Shown here in pieces: positions 44,156-64,000 of a stretch of DNA of 64,000 nucleotides; positions within the stretch are counted from its first letter, which is position 1; each line of letters starts with the position of its first letter. Source of the DNA: Chloroflexota bacterium (GTDB lineage Bacteria > Chloroflexota > Limnocylindria > QHBO01); NCBI GenBank assembly GCA_038040195.1, contig JBBPIR010000001.1, forward strand, positions 489,141 to 553,140. The letters run 5' to 3'. The translations under genes were made by a program, and so were the position numbers. Under the pieces are notes generated by a model. It was not told the DNA's origin. It made no database searches and saw only the letters and a list, made by a program, of their open reading frames with translations.

Positions 44156-44560
44156 ATGACCGATCTTCCCCAGCAGCCGATCGAGATGATCCTGCTCCGC
44201 CAGCTGTCGGAGCACCTGTCCATTCCGATGTGGGTCATCGACGGCGAGGGGGATCTCGTCTTTTTCAACGAGGCGGCCGAGCCGACCCTCGGCGTGCGGG
44301 CCGACGACGTTGACCAGATGCCGTTCGAGACCTGGACCACGTCCTTCCGGCCCCGGGATCTATCGGGCAATCCGCTGCCGCCCGAGGCGCTGCCCCCGAT
44401 CATCGCGCTGCGAAAGGGGGAACCGGCCCATGCCACGATCGAGATCACGGGCGGGGATGGGGTCGCGCGCCGGATCGGCGTCACCGCCTTCCCGCTGACC
44501 GGCGGCCACGGCGACATCATGGGCTCGGTGACGATGTTCTGGGAGTCCCCCAAGGCGTGA
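44156..44560 (+). CDS. Stand-alone PAS domain protein
   Basis: 134 aa. PAS-like pattern (IPMWVIDGEGDLVFFNEAAEPTLG ... GVARRIGVTAFPL). Located inside the nuo operon. Confidence 0.65.
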   Translation: MTDLPQQPIEMILLRQLSEHLSIPMWVIDGEGDLVFFNEAAEPTLGVRADDVDQMPFETWTTSFRPRDLSGNPLPPEALPPIIALRKGEPAHATIEITGGDGVARRIGVTAFPLTGGHGDIMGSVTMFWESPKA

Positions 44561-58771: not shown

Positions 58772-59979
58772 GCGTGATTGAGGCCCCCGAGGCCGCCCGA
58801 CTCGACGTCCGTGCGGAGCCGACCGGCCCGACCGTTGCACGCGCCCCGCTGAAGATCGGGATCGTCAGTCCGTATGGCTTTCCGCACCCCGGCGGGGTCA
58901 ACGAGCACGTACGGCACACCTACGAGGAGCTGCGCTCGCTTGGTCACGACGCATGGATCATCACTCCCAAGTACGGTCCGGAGCGCGACAGCGAGGGCCA
59001 CGTCATCCGCGTCGGCACGGGCTGGGCGGTGCCCAGCAACGGAAGCGTCGGCCGCCTGACCATCGGTTGGCGGCTCAGACCCCGGATCCGCGATCTGCTG
59101 GCGGCCCACCGCTTCGACGTCCTCCACTTCCACGAGCCGTTCGTCCCGTTCCTGTGCCCTGTGGTGCTGCGGGAATCGAGGACCGTCAACGTGGCGACCT
59201 TCCACGCGTTCGGCGGCTTCTCCCCGTCCTATTGGCTCGGACGCCGGGCGGGCTCCGGTTTGGCCGCGCGCCTGCACGGCCGGATTGCGGTCAGCGGCGC
59301 GGCCCGCCACTTCATCGGCCGCTACTTCGAAGGCGACTACCGGATCATTCCCAATGGAGTCGAGATCGAGCCGTTTGCCACTGCGCAGCCCTTCGACGAA
59401 CTGCGGGACGGGACCTTGAACATCCTGTTCGTTGGTCGGATGGAGGACCGCAAGGGCATGTCGTACCTCCTGCGGGGCTACCACCGGCTCCGGAAGCGCC
59501 ACGTCGACGCGCGCCTGATCGTGGTCGGCGAGGGTCCGCGACTCCGCGAGTACAAGCGCTACGCGGCGACCCGCCGCATCCGGGACGTCGAGTTCGTGGG
59601 TCACGTGTCGCAGGCCGCCAAGCTCCGCTACTTCGCCAGTGCCGACATCTTCTGTGCCCCGTCTACGGGCCAGGAGAGCTTCGGGATCGTCCTGCTGGAA
59701 GCCATGGCCGCCGGCCTGCCGATCGTGGCCTCGGACATCCACGGCTACAAGAACGTGGTCTCGCGCGATGTCGAGGGCTACCTGGTCGAGCCGCGCAACC
59801 CACGCGCCATCGCGGCGGCGCTGTACAAGCTGGCCAGGAATCCGGACCTGCGACATCGGATGGGCGAGGCCGGCCGCGCAAAGGCCGAGGACTACTCCTG
59901 GGAGCGTGTCACCCAGCAGTTGGTGGCGTACTACCACGAGGTGCGCGACGAGGTCCTCGCGAAGCGCGTCGGCCCCTAG
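58768..59979 (+). CDS. pimA: GT4 phosphatidylinositol mannosyltransferase (PimA-like)
   Basis: IGIVSPYGFPHPGGVNEHV and ESFGIVLLEAMAAG (E-x7-E region). ATGA overlap with the PHP gene. Confidence 0.8.
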   Translation: MSVIEAPEAARLDVRAEPTGPTVARAPLKIGIVSPYGFPHPGGVNEHVRHTYEELRSLGHDAWIITPKYGPERDSEGHVIRVGTGWAVPSNGSVGRLTIGWRLRPRIRDLLAAHRFDVLHFHEPFVPFLCPVVLRESRTVNVATFHAFGGFSPSYWLGRRAGSGLAARLHGRIAVSGAARHFIGRYFEGDYRIIPNGVEIEPFATAQPFDELRDGTLNILFVGRMEDRKGMSYLLRGYHRLRKRHVDARLIVVGEGPRLREYKRYAATRRIRDVEFVGHVSQAAKLRYFASADIFCAPSTGQESFGIVLLEAMAAGLPIVASDIHGYKNVVSRDVEGYLVEPRNPRAIAAALYKLARNPDLRHRMGEAGRAKAEDYSWERVTQQLVAYYHEVRDEVLAKRVGP

Positions 59980-60965
59980 GCCACCTCGAATGGCCGCCGA
60001 TAGGCGGTGAACTTCTCGCTGACGACGAATCCGTTGTCGGTGTAGACGCCAAGTGCCCCGGTCTCGTTGCCCGCGTCGACGCCGAGGATCCCCTCGGCCA
60101 TGCCCCGGTCGCGCAGCAGCGTCAACGAGCGCGCGACGAGCGCGTGGGCCAGCCCGCGACCGCGCCACTGGCGCCGGGTGAAGACCGAGTCCAACCAGCC
60201 CCGTTCGACACCCAGCTGCCGGTTCGCATCGGCGTAGATGGCGTTGATGACTGCGCCCGCGATCTCATCGCCGTCGAAGGCCACCACGTGCAGGGAGGGG
60301 TCGAAACTCGACTCCTCAGACCAGCGAGCGAACGCCGTGTCCGAACTGTCCACTCCGCCCCAGTGGTCGAGAAACGCCTCGTTGTCGGCCAGGAACAGCC
60401 GATGCGAGTCCTCGCGTGTGACCGGCCGCACCTCGAGCCCCTCGGGGAGCGGGAGGTCGGCGATCGGCTGCGCCAGGTCACGGGTCATGTGGAAGAACCA
60501 CCGGGCCGGCCGGTAGCCGTTCCGCTCGTACAGAGCGTGCGCGCCCTTGTCCGTCTCCGCGGCCCAGCAGCCGGCCACCCGAGGCCGATCGATGTCATGG
60601 CTGGCCGCCACCTCAGAGATGCGCTTTCGCGCGCGGGCGAACAGCACGGAGCCGACTCCGCGCCGGCGCCAAACCGGATCCACCTCGCCCCAGGATCGGT
60701 ACTCGCGCAGCCCATCGTTGGTGTCGATCCATGCGACCTTCGCGAAGCCAACGGTCGTCTCGTCGACCTCGGCCACGACCAGGTCGTGGGCGGGGTCGCA
60801 CTTCTCGTCGGGACGCAGCTCCAGGGTCATCTGCTCCACGGTGAGGCGGTCGCTGATCTGGTCGGCCGCCTCGGCATCGTTCGTGATGCGGGTGAGGATC
60901 GGGATGTCGGCCTCCCCGGCGTACGGTCGCAGCCGGACCTGGACATCGGTCAATTTCGAGCTCAT
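59976..60965 (-). CDS. Tandem-GNAT N-acetyltransferase (MshD-like architecture)
   Basis: 329 aa with two GNAT cores (WRRRGVGSVLFARA and WRGRGLAHALVARS). 4-nt convergent overlap with pimA. Confidence 0.65.
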   Translation of the reverse strand: MSSKLTDVQVRLRPYAGEADIPILTRITNDAEAADQISDRLTVEQMTLELRPDEKCDPAHDLVVAEVDETTVGFAKVAWIDTNDGLREYRSWGEVDPVWRRRGVGSVLFARARKRISEVAASHDIDRPRVAGCWAAETDKGAHALYERNGYRPARWFFHMTRDLAQPIADLPLPEGLEVRPVTREDSHRLFLADNEAFLDHWGGVDSSDTAFARWSEESSFDPSLHVVAFDGDEIAGAVINAIYADANRQLGVERGWLDSVFTRRQWRGRGLAHALVARSLTLLRDRGMAEGILGVDAGNETGALGVYTDNGFVVSEKFTAYRRPFEVA

Positions 60966-60966
60966 G

Positions 60967-61767
60967 TCAGCCCACCCGCTTCAGTCTGCCCGTGCGCTTG
61001 GCGTAGCGCTCGGCCCGCCCGAAGGCCCACAGGCCCAGGGGAATGAACACGAACCCCATCAGGGCCAACGGCCAGGCGTCGTGGAGCAGCGCGGTGACCG
61101 ACGTGCCGTTGATCAGCCCCTCCCGCACCGCGTCCAGCACATACGTTGCCGGGCTGAAGTTGCTCAGGAACTGCATCCACTCGGGCAGGATCTCGACCGA
61201 GTAGTACACCCCGCTGATCAGCAGCAGGACCGACTGCAGGACGAAGGTCATCTGCGCCCCGCGCTCCACGTACATGAGCGGCAGGATGGCGGTCATGATC
61301 CCGATCCCGATGAACGAGAACGAGCCCAGGACCATGAACACCGCCGCCGTGCCCAGATCCGCCTGGGCCAGATTCAGGTCGAAGAACAGCGCCAGCACCA
61401 CGAGCATGACCACGGTGTGAATCATCCCGTACGTGACCGCGAAGATGGTCGACCCCAGCATGTGGGTCCAGCGCCGCACGGGAGCCATGAAGGTGTACTC
61501 CAGGGTCCCCTCCCAGCGCTCCCAGGCCACCGTCTCGGCGATGAAACTGAACAGGATGGACAGGTAGTTCCAGAAGATGGCGCCAACGACCAGGGTGAGC
61601 AACAGCACCTGGTCGTTCTGAGACTGACCGATGAGGGCGACCGCCAGGGCGCCCGCCACCGAGTAGACCAGGAAGGCGACTTCCCAGCCCCAGTAGCGCT
61701 TGGTGAGGTTGAAGTTCCGCTCGACGAAGGCGTACGAGGCCCTCAGCTCGCGGGTCAGGATGGCCAT
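60967..61767 (-). CDS. ABC-2 type exporter permease
   Basis: 266 aa, 6 TM helices. It starts immediately after the ATPase stop. Confidence 0.8.
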   Translation of the reverse strand: MAILTRELRASYAFVERNFNLTKRYWGWEVAFLVYSVAGALAVALIGQSQNDQVLLLTLVVGAIFWNYLSILFSFIAETVAWERWEGTLEYTFMAPVRRWTHMLGSTIFAVTYGMIHTVVMLVVLALFFDLNLAQADLGTAAVFMVLGSFSFIGIGIMTAILPLMYVERGAQMTFVLQSVLLLISGVYYSVEILPEWMQFLSNFSPATYVLDAVREGLINGTSVTALLHDAWPLALMGFVFIPLGLWAFGRAERYAKRTGRLKRVG

Positions 61768-62673
61768 CTACTCGTCCTCTTCCGGTTCTTTTTCCTCGAC
61801 GTCGTCGTCCAGCGACCGTCCGGTGAAGGTCATGAACACGCTTTCCATGGTCGGAGGCTGGCCGTGCTCAGCGGCGACCATCGCCATCAGGCCGGCCGGG
61901 GTGTCCTCGGCCACGATCCGCCCGTCGTTGAGGATCGCGATCCGCCGACACAGCCGCTCCGCCTCGTCCAGGTCGTGGGTGGTCAGCACGATCGTCGCGT
62001 CGTGGTTGTCCCGCACGTCCTCGATGAAGGTCTGGACGTCCAGCTTGGACCGTGGATCCAGGCCGGTGGTCGGCTCGTCCAGGAGGAGCAGGATCGGGCT
62101 GGTCAGCAGGGCGCGTGCGATGGCCACCTTCTGCTGCATGCCCCGGCTCATCTGCTCCAGCGGCCGGGACAGGCGCTTCTCGGCGATCCCCAGCCGGGCC
62201 AGGATGCGGATCGCCTCGACCCGCGCCAGCCGGGCGTCCATGCCGTACAGGCGCGCGGCGTAGATCAGGTTCTCGAACGGGGACAGCTTCTTGAAGAACG
62301 CCGCGTCCACGCTGACCCGGTTGATCAGGCGCTTGACGGCCATCTCGTCGCGCTCGATGTCATGGCCGAAGATCTCCACCCGTCCGGTGTCGAGCGTCAG
62401 CAGGGTTGAAAAGAGCCGGATGAGGGTCGACTTGCCGCTCCCGTTGGCGCCCAGGATGCCGTAGATCTCGCCGCGCTCGATCCGGATCGACACGTCGTTG
62501 ATGGCCACCACCGGCCGCTTCTTGCGGCCGACCTGGAACCGCTTGCTGACGTGCTCGGCCGTGACGGCCAACGGCAGCACCGGCTCAGGCAGCACCACCT
62601 GCGGCGTCTCCACCGTCGCGGTGGGGCGCTCGTCGGTCACCGTCTTCGTCTGTGGGCTGATGCCGGTCTGCAT
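61768..62673 (-). CDS. ABC transporter ATP-binding protein (DrrA-like)
   Basis: GANGSGKST, LSRGMQQKVAIA, LLLDEPTTGLD and TTHD. The ATG at 62673 is preferred. A GTG at 62748 would add a repeat-encoded HRSSRQ-HRSSRR-HRSSQK extension. Confidence 0.85.
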   Translation of the reverse strand: MQTGISPQTKTVTDERPTATVETPQVVLPEPVLPLAVTAEHVSKRFQVGRKKRPVVAINDVSIRIERGEIYGILGANGSGKSTLIRLFSTLLTLDTGRVEIFGHDIERDEMAVKRLINRVSVDAAFFKKLSPFENLIYAARLYGMDARLARVEAIRILARLGIAEKRLSRPLEQMSRGMQQKVAIARALLTSPILLLLDEPTTGLDPRSKLDVQTFIEDVRDNHDATIVLTTHDLDEAERLCRRIAILNDGRIVAEDTPAGLMAMVAAEHGQPPTMESVFMTFTGRSLDDDVEEKEPEEDE

Positions 62674-62682
62674 CTGGAGTTC

Positions 62683-62736
62683 CTTCTGGCTGGACCGATG
62701 TCTTCGGCTGGACCGATGTTGTCGGCTGGACCGATG
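62683..62736 (-). repeat. 18-nt tandem repeat x3 (minus strand CATCGGTCCAGCC + 5 variable nt) directly upstream of the ABC ATPase start
   Basis: Units at 62683-62700, 62701-62718 and 62719-62736. A 13-nt core is identical in all three. Confidence 0.85.
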
Positions 62737-62748
62737 CGGACCGGGCAC

Positions 62749-62779
62749 AAAAAGGCCGTGGTCCGGATCGGCCCACGGC
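62749..62779 (-). terminator. Intrinsic-terminator-like hairpin plus U5 tract inside the ABC exporter leader
   Basis: Minus strand reads GCCGTGG-(GCCGATCCGGA)-CCACGGC followed by CTTTTTG. A U5 run looks rare in this GC-rich sequence. Confidence 0.5.
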
Positions 62780-62942
62780 TGGGGTCTGAGTCGGCGGCGG
62801 TGCCGCCGGATCGTCAGCTGGTCGCGGGCGTAGATCTCCCGTTTCGCGGGGCGCTGAGCGTGCAGGTCATGGCGATGCGGCTCCTCGTTGCGAACGGGAA
62901 GGATGGCGGGTGGCGGCTACACCCGGCGTTGGTCGCCGGCGG

Positions 62943-62972
62943 AGTCTACGGGCGGGGGTCGGACGGTGTCAA
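62943..62972 (-). promoter_or_regulatory. Sigma-70-type promoter candidate TTGACA-N18-TAGACT (minus strand) for the ABC exporter leader
   Basis: On the plus strand, TGTCAA lies at 62967-62972 and AGTCTA at 62943-62948. This predicts a leader of about 260 nt before the ATG at 62673. Confidence 0.5.
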
Positions 62973-63052
62973 GAAACGGGCCGAATGGCATTGGAGTCCG
63001 GACAGGACGGGTGCCAGAATGGGAGTCCTAGCTCGGAGGGGAGTCAGTCGCC

Positions 63053-64000
63053 ATGAAATCCGCGCCGCGCGGCGCCATCTTCTGGGGCGCCGCACTTGTC
63101 ACCGCCGGAGTGGTGATCCTGGCCATTCAACAGGGCTACATCAACGACGAGATCCTGGCCGAGGCCTCGCGGTGGTGGCCCTTGATCCTGATCGGCGCCG
63201 GCGTAGCGGTCATTTTCGCCGGCAGCCTGGGCGTGGTGGCCATCGGCTTGGCCGGGATCCTTCTCGGCGCGTTGATTGGCGGGCTGGTGGGGAGCGGGGG
63301 TTCGTTCCCGACTGCGTGTGGTGGCGGTGACCCCGCCCCGTTGGGCGCCTTCGAAAGCGGCTCCTTCGGCGGGAGTGGCGGCGACGTCGAGCTAGATCTC
63401 AATTGCGTCACCCTCGAGGTGAGCGGCGGAGACGCCCCGGAGTGGATCGTCGAGGCCGACGAGGAGTCCGCCTCGGATCTCGAGCTGGCCTCGGCCGAGC
63501 GGAACCTGGTAATCCGATCCGGCGACGCGGTGTCGCTGGGCGGACGCCGTAACGTGGCGCTGGCACTCCCCCAGGACGACGGTACGAACATTTCGACCTC
63601 GCTCAACGCCGGGGACGCGACTCTGGATCTGGCCGGAGGCCACTGGGGCGCGATCCTGATGGACGGGAACGCGGCGGCCTTTACGGTCGACCTCTCGGAC
63701 GCGGAGGTGGACTCGCTGGAGGCGTCACTGAACGCGGGATCGGCCGGCCTCCAGTTCTCCGATCAGACCGCGGTCGGATCGGTCCGGCTGAGCGCGAATG
63801 CGGGCGAGTTCCACGTCTGCGTGCCCGATGGCATCGGCCTGCAGGTCACCATCGGCAGTGACGTCGCGGTGGGTCACAACCTCGACGAAGAGGGATTGAC
63901 CGAGGATGGAGACGTGTGGCGCACGCCGGGATACGCGTCCGCGGACATCCGGATCGACATCGTGTTCAGCGGCAACGCCGCCGCGTTCACGCTCAACCCG
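63053..64000 (+). CDS. Membrane protein with LiaF/DUF4097-like beta-repeat C-terminal domain (partial, runs off the window)
   Basis: The frame is open from the ATG at 63053 to the window end (316 codons, hand-translated) and is not in the supplied ORF track. GGAGGGGA lies upstream. It has two or three N-terminal TM helices, then repeated LNAGDATLDL / LNAGSAGLQF / SANAGEFHV strands. Confidence 0.65.
   Translation, partial: MKSAPRGAIFWGAALVTAGVVILAIQQGYINDEILAEASRWWPLILIGAGVAVIFAGSLGVVAIGLAGILLGALIGGLVGSGGSFPTACGGGDPAPLGAFESGSFGGSGGDVELDLNCVTLEVSGGDAPEWIVEADEESASDLELASAERNLVIRSGDAVSLGGRRNVALALPQDDGTNISTSLNAGDATLDLAGGHWGAILMDGNAAAFTVDLSDAEVDSLEASLNAGSAGLQFSDQTAVGSVRLSANAGEFHVCVPDGIGLQVTIGSDVAVGHNLDEEGLTEDGDVWRTPGYASADIRIDIVFSGNAAAFTLNP

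Follow-up and report, generated by a model that had tools for sequence, protein, structure and literature searches.

A candidate ribosome-dependent attenuator with a conserved leader open reading frame upstream of an ABC-2 exporter and acetyltransferase operon in Candidatus Limnocylindria

How is an operon expressed when an intrinsic terminator stands between its promoter and its first gene? This question is raised by a 64,000-nucleotide (nt) stretch of a Chloroflexota genome (contig JBBPIR010000001.1, positions 489,141 to 553,140; the whole stretch is referred to below as the window). Its minus strand carries an operon (59976-62673) for an ATP-binding cassette (ABC) ATPase, an ABC-2 permease and a two-domain GNAT acetyltransferase, whose stop and start codons abut or overlap. 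The sole conserved promoter of this operon lies about 265 nt 5' of the ATPase, and the leader between them contains a short upstream open reading frame (uORF) followed by a predicted intrinsic terminator. The initial annotation of this DNA had listed a promoter, a Shine-Dalgarno sequence with an 18-codon uORF, a hairpin with its U-tract, tandem repeats and the ATPase start, and each of these was recovered exactly where it had been placed. Its proposal that the exporter is controlled by attenuation through a leader peptide and a terminator gains weight from the conservation of the uORF, the terminator and their spacing in at least about 200 sequences, and from the position of the only conserved promoter, 5' of the uORF. 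A new feature is a complementarity between the last uORF codons and the terminator, involving the 5' arm and loop of the latter, which makes the 3' end of the uORF a candidate antiterminator strand. As a whole, the leader is probably a ribosome-dependent transcription attenuator dedicated to the exporter and acetyltransferase operon.

The comparison is based on a scan for the ATPase using one genome per species, which returned at least 528 relatives. The best 80 of these (68-97% identity) were analysed and, together with the window, provide 81 loci. The window's promoter (62943-62972, minus strand) consists of a -35 element TTGACA (62972-62967), an 18-nt spacer and a -10 element TAGACT (62948-62943), with a transcription start predicted from the sequence near 62937 on the same strand. 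It is the sole promoter-like match within 62300-63300, where 0.1 is expected from shuffled sequences. Of the 81 loci, 74 have a TTGACA-N17-19-TAnnnT site, mostly with TAGACT as its second half, at the matching position; of the seven that show no match, four have too short an upstream sequence. A sequence scan of the interval from the terminator to the ATPase found no promoter-like site in any of the 81 loci. The operon must therefore be expressed by read-through.

The predicted terminator (62749-62779, minus strand) pairs GCCGUGG (62779-62773) with CCACGGC (62761-62755) around an inner CCG/CGG stem and an AUC loop, and is followed by a C and by UUUUU (62753-62749). A consensus terminator scan of the window did not report this hairpin, presumably because of an internal mismatch in the stem. 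It was then checked by inverted repeats, which gave 11-nt arms with 91% complementarity, and by folding. At -17.5 kcal/mol, it is the most stable hairpin lying flush against a T-run in the window, whose two strands, at 69.6% G+C, contain just five runs of five or more T. The consensus in related loci is GAGCCGTGGGCC(A/G)GATCGGGTCCACGG followed by T5-6, and the U-tract has five to six U in most of them. In the covariation alignment, which comprises 77 distinct 3' domains, 92.5% of the cells in the terminator stem are paired and three pairs are changed on both sides (CCGUGG/CCACGG versus CCGGAGG/CCCCCGG).

The uORF itself (62814-62870, minus strand; 18 codons followed by TGA at 62816-62814) encodes the peptide MTCTLSAPRNGRSTPATS, and its Shine-Dalgarno sequence, GAGGAG (62881-62886, minus strand), lies 10 nt 5' of the ATG. 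Conservation of the uORF in homologous leaders had been named as a check on the original proposal, and it is observed: no locus read through the leader region lacks a uORF, and GAGGA or AGGAG stands at the same place in nearly all of them, 6-12 nt 5' of a conserved ATG. The length of the uORF is 18-20 codons in the subgroup to which the window belongs (L002-L008) and about 29 in the main group. Its stop codon is TGA in 38 loci, TAG in 22 and TAA in 5, and the three interchange within one alignment column, as expected of a stop codon and not of a constraint on RNA structure. The distance from the stop to the terminator hairpin is 34-40 nt in most loci and 35 nt in the window. Judged from these sequence features, the leader is very probably an attenuator of the uORF and terminator type.

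Essentially all of the 80 related genome loci show the same ordered elements 5' of their ATPase orthologue, and almost all of these loci come from Candidatus Limnocylindria or from Chloroflexota metagenome-assembled genomes (MAGs). Moreover, a metagenome scan with an exact pattern detected at least 120 further instances of the leader. Among the matches listed, the ATPase lies within 600 nt in 98 of the 102 contigs with enough downstream DNA, which argues that the leader is dedicated to this operon. The four exceptions (L094, L118/L163 and L150) look rearranged or truncated: uORF and terminator are intact, and the ATPase is truncated, deleted or replaced. In L118 the permease C-terminus can still be recognised about 1.3 kb away, and these loci appear to be decaying or rearranged copies. 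Six genome loci (L002, L010, L029, L034, L062 and L075) carry the labels Pleomorphomonadaceae, Zixiibacteriota, Steroidobacteraceae or Binatia; they are probably mis-binned contigs in MAGs.

A search for alternative antiterminator pairings had been suggested together with the original proposal, and such a pairing is found, with compensatory changes, between the 3' end of the uORF and the 5' arm and loop of the terminator. In the window, the candidate 5' strand of the antiterminator is the motif GGGAGAUCUACGCCCGCG (62823-62840, minus strand), which lies inside the last uORF codons and contains AGA-UCU. Related loci carry a near-invariant 15-nt motif, CGGGAGATCTGYGCCC (GGGAGAUCUGYGCCC), in the same codons. 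The general pairing joins 5'-GAUCUG-(Y)-GCCC-3' of the motif to 5'-GGGC-C(A/G)GAUC-3' of the terminator. In the window, GAUC (62836-62833) faces the GAUC of the terminator loop and CCCGCG (62828-62823) faces CGUGGG of the 5' arm; through this CCCGCG:CGUGGG segment the helix of the window's subgroup reaches further into the terminator stem.

Over the 77 aligned sequences, 96.2% of the cells of this helix are paired, compared with at most 53.5% in controls with a slid register. Double changes occur at three pairs (5 cells), against 0.2 in shuffles. At pair 25:100, 32 sequences have U-G, 30 have U-A and 6 have C-G, an alternation that is a signature at the RNA and not the DNA level. Motif and loop also change together between lineages. 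The main group combines the motif GAUCUG with a CAGAUC or CGGAUC loop; L045 and L056 combine GAUCCG with CGGAUC; L073, GAUUUG with CAAAUC; L067 and L078, GACCG with CGGUC; L081, AUCCG with CGGAU; L028, CGUG with CACG; and L036, UGUG with CACA. In the last two loci the terminator loop is only 3-4 nt long and the complementarity is still kept, which favours a helix that excludes the terminator over a contact between two hairpin loops.

The C-terminus of the uORF peptide is likewise conserved, as (D/G)GRS(V/A/T/M)P followed by two to four codons, and this raises the possibility that the nascent peptide is itself the sensor. According to this alternative, (D/G)GRS(V/A)P would stall ribosomes that have reached the uORF end, perhaps solely if a small molecule such as the substrate of the exporter occupies the exit tunnel, as for TnaC, SpeFL and ErmCL; the stalled ribosome, and not the pairing of the RNA in itself, would then set the choice between terminator and antiterminator. 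The Arg-x-x-Pro spacing is reminiscent of the RAGP of SecM. Indeed, GR(S/T/F)(V/A)P is retained through other codons in three divergent lineages: L067 and L078 encode GRTVP with GGC AGG ACC GTG CCC, L066, L072 and L076 use the Arg codon CGA (GGG CGA TCT for GRS), and L073 has GRFVP at the uORF end. A Pro codon is always found near the stop, and the motif contains the adjacent codons AGA-UCU (62832-62837, minus strand), which have the lowest shares among the codons for Arg (1.3%) and for Ser (2.8%) in the open reading frames of the window. Against this, seven loci (L019, L023, L028, L036, L045, L050 and L052) read the motif nucleotides in the +1 frame, giving GD(L/V/P)CPS*, and their variable residue coincides with the nucleotides that pair to the terminator loop; since the residue follows the pairing, the constraint at the RNA level dominates at the uORF end. 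Upstream of the motif the peptide body is not conserved: the entropies at codon positions 1, 2 and 3 are 1.16, 1.12 and 0.98 (uORF codons 2-20), and because variability shows no third-position excess, the amino-acid sequence of the body is not under selection. Furthermore, a ribosome halted at the uORF end would mask the candidate antiterminator strand and, at 35 nt from the terminator, would be too far away to disrupt the terminator directly. Arrest by the nascent peptide is thus an unlikely explanation, and a constraint at the peptide level may act on the uORF end besides that at the RNA level.

A more elaborate version can be envisaged in which (D/G)GRS(V/A)P on tandem rarest codons would be a programmed pause or arrest module reading a specific small molecule within the exit tunnel, for instance the exporter substrate or a ribosome-bound drug, the same nucleotides serving as the antiterminator strand. 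We regard it as doubtful. If it were true, a single 15-nt element with two superimposed codes would couple a nascent-chain sensor to transcription termination.

Some further properties of the uORFs were recorded. In the peptides of 64 distinct loci, Ser is represented 3-fold, Cys 2.75-fold and Ala 0.93-fold relative to the window's proteins; at least one Cys is present in 67% of them, and none of these uORFs contains a run of codons for one amino acid. The clade that reads the motif in the +1 frame has GGA, GAU and CCU at these places, which are likewise the least used among their synonymous codons. Sequences resembling the motif occur earlier in main-group leaders (for example L058, L031 and L069), as GAGGAGCGAUCUGACGGCAAUG in the interval separating the Shine-Dalgarno sequence from the AUG and as CAUCUGCGCC at uORF codons 4-7. 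These early copies could be decoy strands, second antiterminator strands or remnants of duplication.

How could translation of the uORF decide between the two folds? This was approached by folding nascent transcripts, in which the leader was cut at the end of the terminator loop so that the 3' arm was not yet made, with ribosome footprints masked. For the window and L014, the terminator 5' arm pairs with the motif if the ribosome is absent or located on early or middle codons, and this pairing is lost once the footprint covers approximately the last eight uORF codons. For L058 and L071, the motif of the ribosome-free transcript is sequestered by uORF codons 2-4 (AUCUCC:GGGAGAU), and the antiterminator is seen just when the ribosome occupies early codons, as in the trp leader.

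We infer the following order of events. A ribosome keeping pace with RNA polymerase would cover the antiterminator strand once it arrives at the uORF end; the terminator hairpin would then form, transcription would stop at the U-tract (62753-62749) and the operon would be OFF. The tandem rare AGA-UCU codons are located exactly where the masking ribosome would have to dwell. If translation of the uORF were delayed or stalled further upstream, the strand would remain free to pair with the nascent 5' arm before the 3' arm is made, the polymerase would read through into the exporter genes and the operon would be ON. Complete absence of translation would also lead to read-through in some loci, and not clearly so in the window. 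The operon would in this way be induced by translation stress. Since the genes controlled encode an exporter and an acetyltransferase, ribosome-targeting antibiotics would be the most plausible natural signal. For this particular pairing, and for which way the switch works, our confidence is moderate; antibiotics as the inducing signal, suggested by analogy, are a tentative and rather questionable choice.

Several observations weigh against this attenuation model. At equilibrium, the full leader adopts the terminator in its minimum free energy (MFE) fold under every ribosome mask, and the switch must therefore be kinetic, as in classical attenuators. The predictions for a transcript without ribosome differ among loci. 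Covariation in the antiterminator amounts to 5 cells and few independent events in a helix that is mostly invariant; the double change in L033 would be neutral whichever model holds. Both a local hairpin and the terminator also need the GCCC/GGGC part, so that its complementarity may be incidental, and for main-group leaders the antiterminator does not cover the 4-6 bp at the base of the terminator stem, which stay free as a toehold. Moreover, both partners of the covarying pairs are loop nucleotides, of the terminator on one side and of the weak local hairpin on the other, which allows a loop-loop contact as an alternative reading. The transcription start, the 3' end and the translation of the uORF are all predictions, and the antibiotic signal is one we infer just from the cargo genes and analogy.

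In the loop-loop alternative, the loop AGAUCUGYG of a local hairpin formed around the motif would contact the terminator loop (A/G)GAUCG while both hairpins remain folded; the resulting tertiary fold would bind a ligand or protein in the manner of a riboswitch, or simply tune how well the terminator works, with the uORF in a secondary role. For main-group sequences, the RNAalifold consensus does predict a local hairpin, GAC-GGG[loop]CCC-GUC, in addition to the terminator, with the covarying pairs 22-25:100-103 in the loops of both. This hairpin was rejected as a candidate structure, being just 57.5% paired. The terminator loops of L028 and L036 are too small for such a contact, the pairing in the window's subgroup extends into the terminator stem, and a pure RNA element would not need the conserved Shine-Dalgarno sequence, ATG and stop of the uORF. 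Nor was any relevant match obtained with Rfam 15 for the window interval 62400-63200 at E<=10, or any match for 10 related loci at E<=0.1, thresholds of which the former is permissive. A ligand-binding leader RNA, which the initial annotation had offered as an alternative to uORF control, found no support for the same reason. We consider the contact between loops improbable.

It may also be asked whether the leader is an independent small gene, for a small protein or small RNA, with its own promoter and terminator, the operon being expressed from a separate promoter. Promoter, uORF and terminator do form a complete small transcription unit, and the terminator is always favoured at equilibrium. 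The absence of a promoter-like site between terminator and ATPase in the 81 loci, set beside a near-consensus upstream promoter in 74, the association of leader and operon in 98 of the 102 metagenome contigs, the unconserved peptide body and a complementarity between uORF end and terminator that would have no role in a stand-alone gene make this explanation very improbable. The least credible reading, that the palindromic AGATCT, the GATC recurring in the leader and in the terminator loop, and the CATCGGTCC repeats are DNA operators for a transcription factor acting as roadblock or repressor, could point to direct 18-bp repeats and a 15-nt inverted repeat flanking the terminator, yet it hardly accommodates the U-G, U-A and C-G states of pair 25:100 (a G-U wobble is meaningful just in RNA), partners about 70 nt apart inside a transcribed and translated leader, or a repeat copy number that varies between near-identical genomes.

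A ribosome-dependent attenuator of the proposed kind can be compared with several characterised systems. In the mycobacterial whiB7 leader, efficient translation of a uORF leads to a Rho-independent terminator, whereas an antiterminator forms and transcription reads through when translation is inefficient or stalled (PMC10274678). The arrangement is similar: a promoter far upstream, then a short uORF, then a Rho-independent terminator stand 5' of the regulated gene, the uORF peptide varies between species, and the output is linked, here putatively, to intrinsic resistance against ribosome-targeting drugs. There is no sequence or structural homology, however, and whiB7 belongs to Actinomycetota and not Chloroflexota. 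The regulated product there is a transcription factor with a positive feedback loop, whereas here the exporter and acetyltransferase would be controlled directly; the uORFs described here are not enriched in alanine (0.93-fold), and their antiterminator strand would be a near-invariant 15-nt motif in the last codons.

The bmrB-bmrCD system of Bacillus subtilis was the first ABC exporter shown to be under ribosome-mediated attenuation, and rare codons in the bmrB leader ORF have a bearing on whether transcription terminates (Reilman et al. 2014, PMC4191407). In both cases a leader ORF, alternative stem-loops and an intrinsic terminator are involved in control of ABC exporter transcription. In bmrB, the terminator lies inside a 53-codon ORF, whereas here it is 35 nt 3' of an ORF of 18-30 codons; translation is required there for read-through, whereas the prediction here is that completed translation tips the balance towards termination. 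BmrCD belongs to the heterodimeric type I exporters, unlike the separate ATPase and ABC-2 permease encoded here, and no sequence similarity is seen.

The classical amino-acid attenuators (trp, his, leu and thr) are built from parts that this leader also has: a leader peptide, an antiterminator, a terminator and an alternative pairing, which in L058 and L071 joins uORF codons 2-4 to the motif. Ribosome position selects the fold there, as it does in the folding predictions here. They differ in that no run of regulatory codons is found here and in that the genes controlled are an exporter and an acetyltransferase, not biosynthetic genes. Antibiotic-inducible leaders of the erm, cat and ABC-F type (ermC, vmlR, msrD, lmrC) likewise use a short leader ORF to sense translation inhibition and to switch RNA structure. 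The vmlR and lmrC leaders are reported to use transcription attenuation too. In contrast to the present case, the genes behind leaders of this type serve ribosome protection or rRNA modification, several such leaders work at translation initiation and not at termination, and their drug specificity derives from defined arrest motifs, none of which is recognisable here.

Identification of the genes downstream bears on what the leader might control. The ATPase (62673-61768, minus strand) matches PF00005 with 108 bits and the permease (61767-60967, minus strand) matches PF01061 with 71 bits; the two-domain GNAT acetyltransferase follows at 60965-59976 on the minus strand. The nearest NCBIfam models are DrrA and DrrB for the transporter and the mycothiol synthase MshD for the GNAT protein, all with scores well under the curated cut-offs. 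The description of the exporter as DrrAB-like therefore holds loosely, as nearest family, and fails on the curated thresholds (218 bits against 312.45 for the ATPase with TIGR01188, and 45 against 223.05 for the permease with TIGR01247). Among the 80 genome loci, the permease is syntenic in 78, the double GNAT gene in 65 and a divergent LiaF-like gene in 40. In the window, this divergent gene (63050-64000, plus strand) had been read as a LiaF-like envelope-stress protein befitting an antibiotic-responsive module. The likeness stands for the N-terminal LiaI-LiaF-like transmembrane domain (E=3.6e-9); the Gly/Asp-rich, repetitive C-terminal part has no Pfam or NCBIfam match, and the presence of the gene says nothing direct on a response to antibiotics.

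Candidatus Limnocylindria is an uncultured class of Chloroflexota that is widespread in soil and freshwater. In the literature, no paper was found that describes this leader or any Limnocylindria leader peptide, and none on any gene regulation in Candidatus Limnocylindria; broader searches yielded just analogous systems. The leader family is previously undescribed, whereas its mechanism is of a well-known kind and leaves knowledge of how attenuation works unchanged. With at least about 200 instances, it would be a class-wide cis-regulator that can be read directly from sequence, and it would indicate that Limnocylindria use intrinsic terminators and ribosome-coupled attenuation. It would also mark the ABC-2 exporter and double-GNAT operon as a unit responding to the state of translation, and hence as a candidate module for intrinsic antibiotic resistance or detoxification in a dominant soil lineage. 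The near-invariant 15-nt segment, in which coding, rare-codon and RNA-pairing functions would coincide, offers a compact natural example. The family could enter RNA and leader-peptide databases, and it could serve as a marker in metatranscriptomes, where the ratio of coverage across the U-tract would report translation stress in situ.

The remaining features of the leader lie on either side of the terminator. Downstream, the post-terminator segment (62688-62744, minus strand) comprises CCGGUCCGCAUC (62744-62733) and three 18-nt repeats CAUCGGUCCAGCCGAnnA (62741-62688), each unit carrying CAUCGGUCC. Segment and repeat copies are complementary to the interior of the terminator (GGACCGAUCCGGACC; GGACCGAU), and CCGGUCCGCAUC is also complementary, in the window's subgroup, to the ATPase start region GAUGCAGACCGG (62674-62663). 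The ATPase Shine-Dalgarno sequence GAAGGA (62686-62681) and ATG (62673-62671), together spanning 62671-62686 on the minus strand, are conserved in the subgroup. In constrained folds of the window, enforcing the terminator leaves the ATPase start codon paired to CCGGUCCGCAUC, and enforcing the antiterminator lets the CCGGUCCGCAUC segment pair with the freed 3' arm of the terminator, whose loop can take part in this alternative pairing as well. This locking of the start codon was not reproduced in constrained folds of L004 and L007. The modelled folds of the window suggest, as one possibility, that the segment is a translational lock silencing leaked transcripts.

The repeats are present in three copies in the window and in two in L002 (97% identical), L003 and L004, a difference that looks like recent slippage. 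A GTG at 62748, directly 3' of the U-tract, in frame with the ATPase and giving a 326-residue product with HRSSRQ-like units three times repeated, was rejected as a start: it has no Shine-Dalgarno sequence, its frame is closed in L002, 30 nt 5' of the ATPase ATG, and close relatives differ here by indels whose lengths are not divisible by three. The 18-nt repeats are consequently not coding. This GTG is likely a trap for mis-annotation.

Between the uORF stop and the terminator, the MFE fold contains a small hairpin, CGGCGGC-ACC-GCCGCCG (62792-62808, minus strand). A GGCGGC-NNN-GCCGCC hairpin is conserved in the alignment (96.9% paired, with four of six pairs changed on both sides) and may be a spacer or a pause hairpin. 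A linker hairpin, CCACG-AGC-CGUGG, located just 5' of the terminator, was considered as an antiterminator and discarded, no covariation being found in the clade with GCCGGAGGG terminators. Upstream of the uORF, two segments of the 5' untranslated region, GGGUGUAG (62924-62917) and CCUUCCCGUUCGC (62902-62890), within 62890-62924 on the minus strand, pair in the MFE fold with the 3' part of the uORF (GCGAAACGGGAG..CUACGCCC). The segments are conserved in the window's subgroup, and in the equilibrium fold the helix encloses the Shine-Dalgarno sequence and start of the uORF; its changes are just transitions and wobble pairs, which support it weakly.

Two other hairpins were noted. Main-group loci (L009-L079; for example L038 and L046) have a second strong hairpin, GAGCCGCGGACC...GGGCCGCGGCUC (GAGAGCCGCGGACC...GGGCCGCGGCUCUC), about 20-90 nt 3' of the first terminator, with a small GAUGCCC...GGGCAUC hairpin before it and a U/C-rich run after it. 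It resembles a diverged tandem copy of the first terminator and is absent from the window's subgroup. Elsewhere in the window, the only other G+C-rich hairpin flush with a T5 run is found at 44240-44265 on the plus strand (GACGAGGGGGAUCUCGUC-UUUUU, -13.5 kcal/mol), and it may be an ordinary intrinsic terminator.

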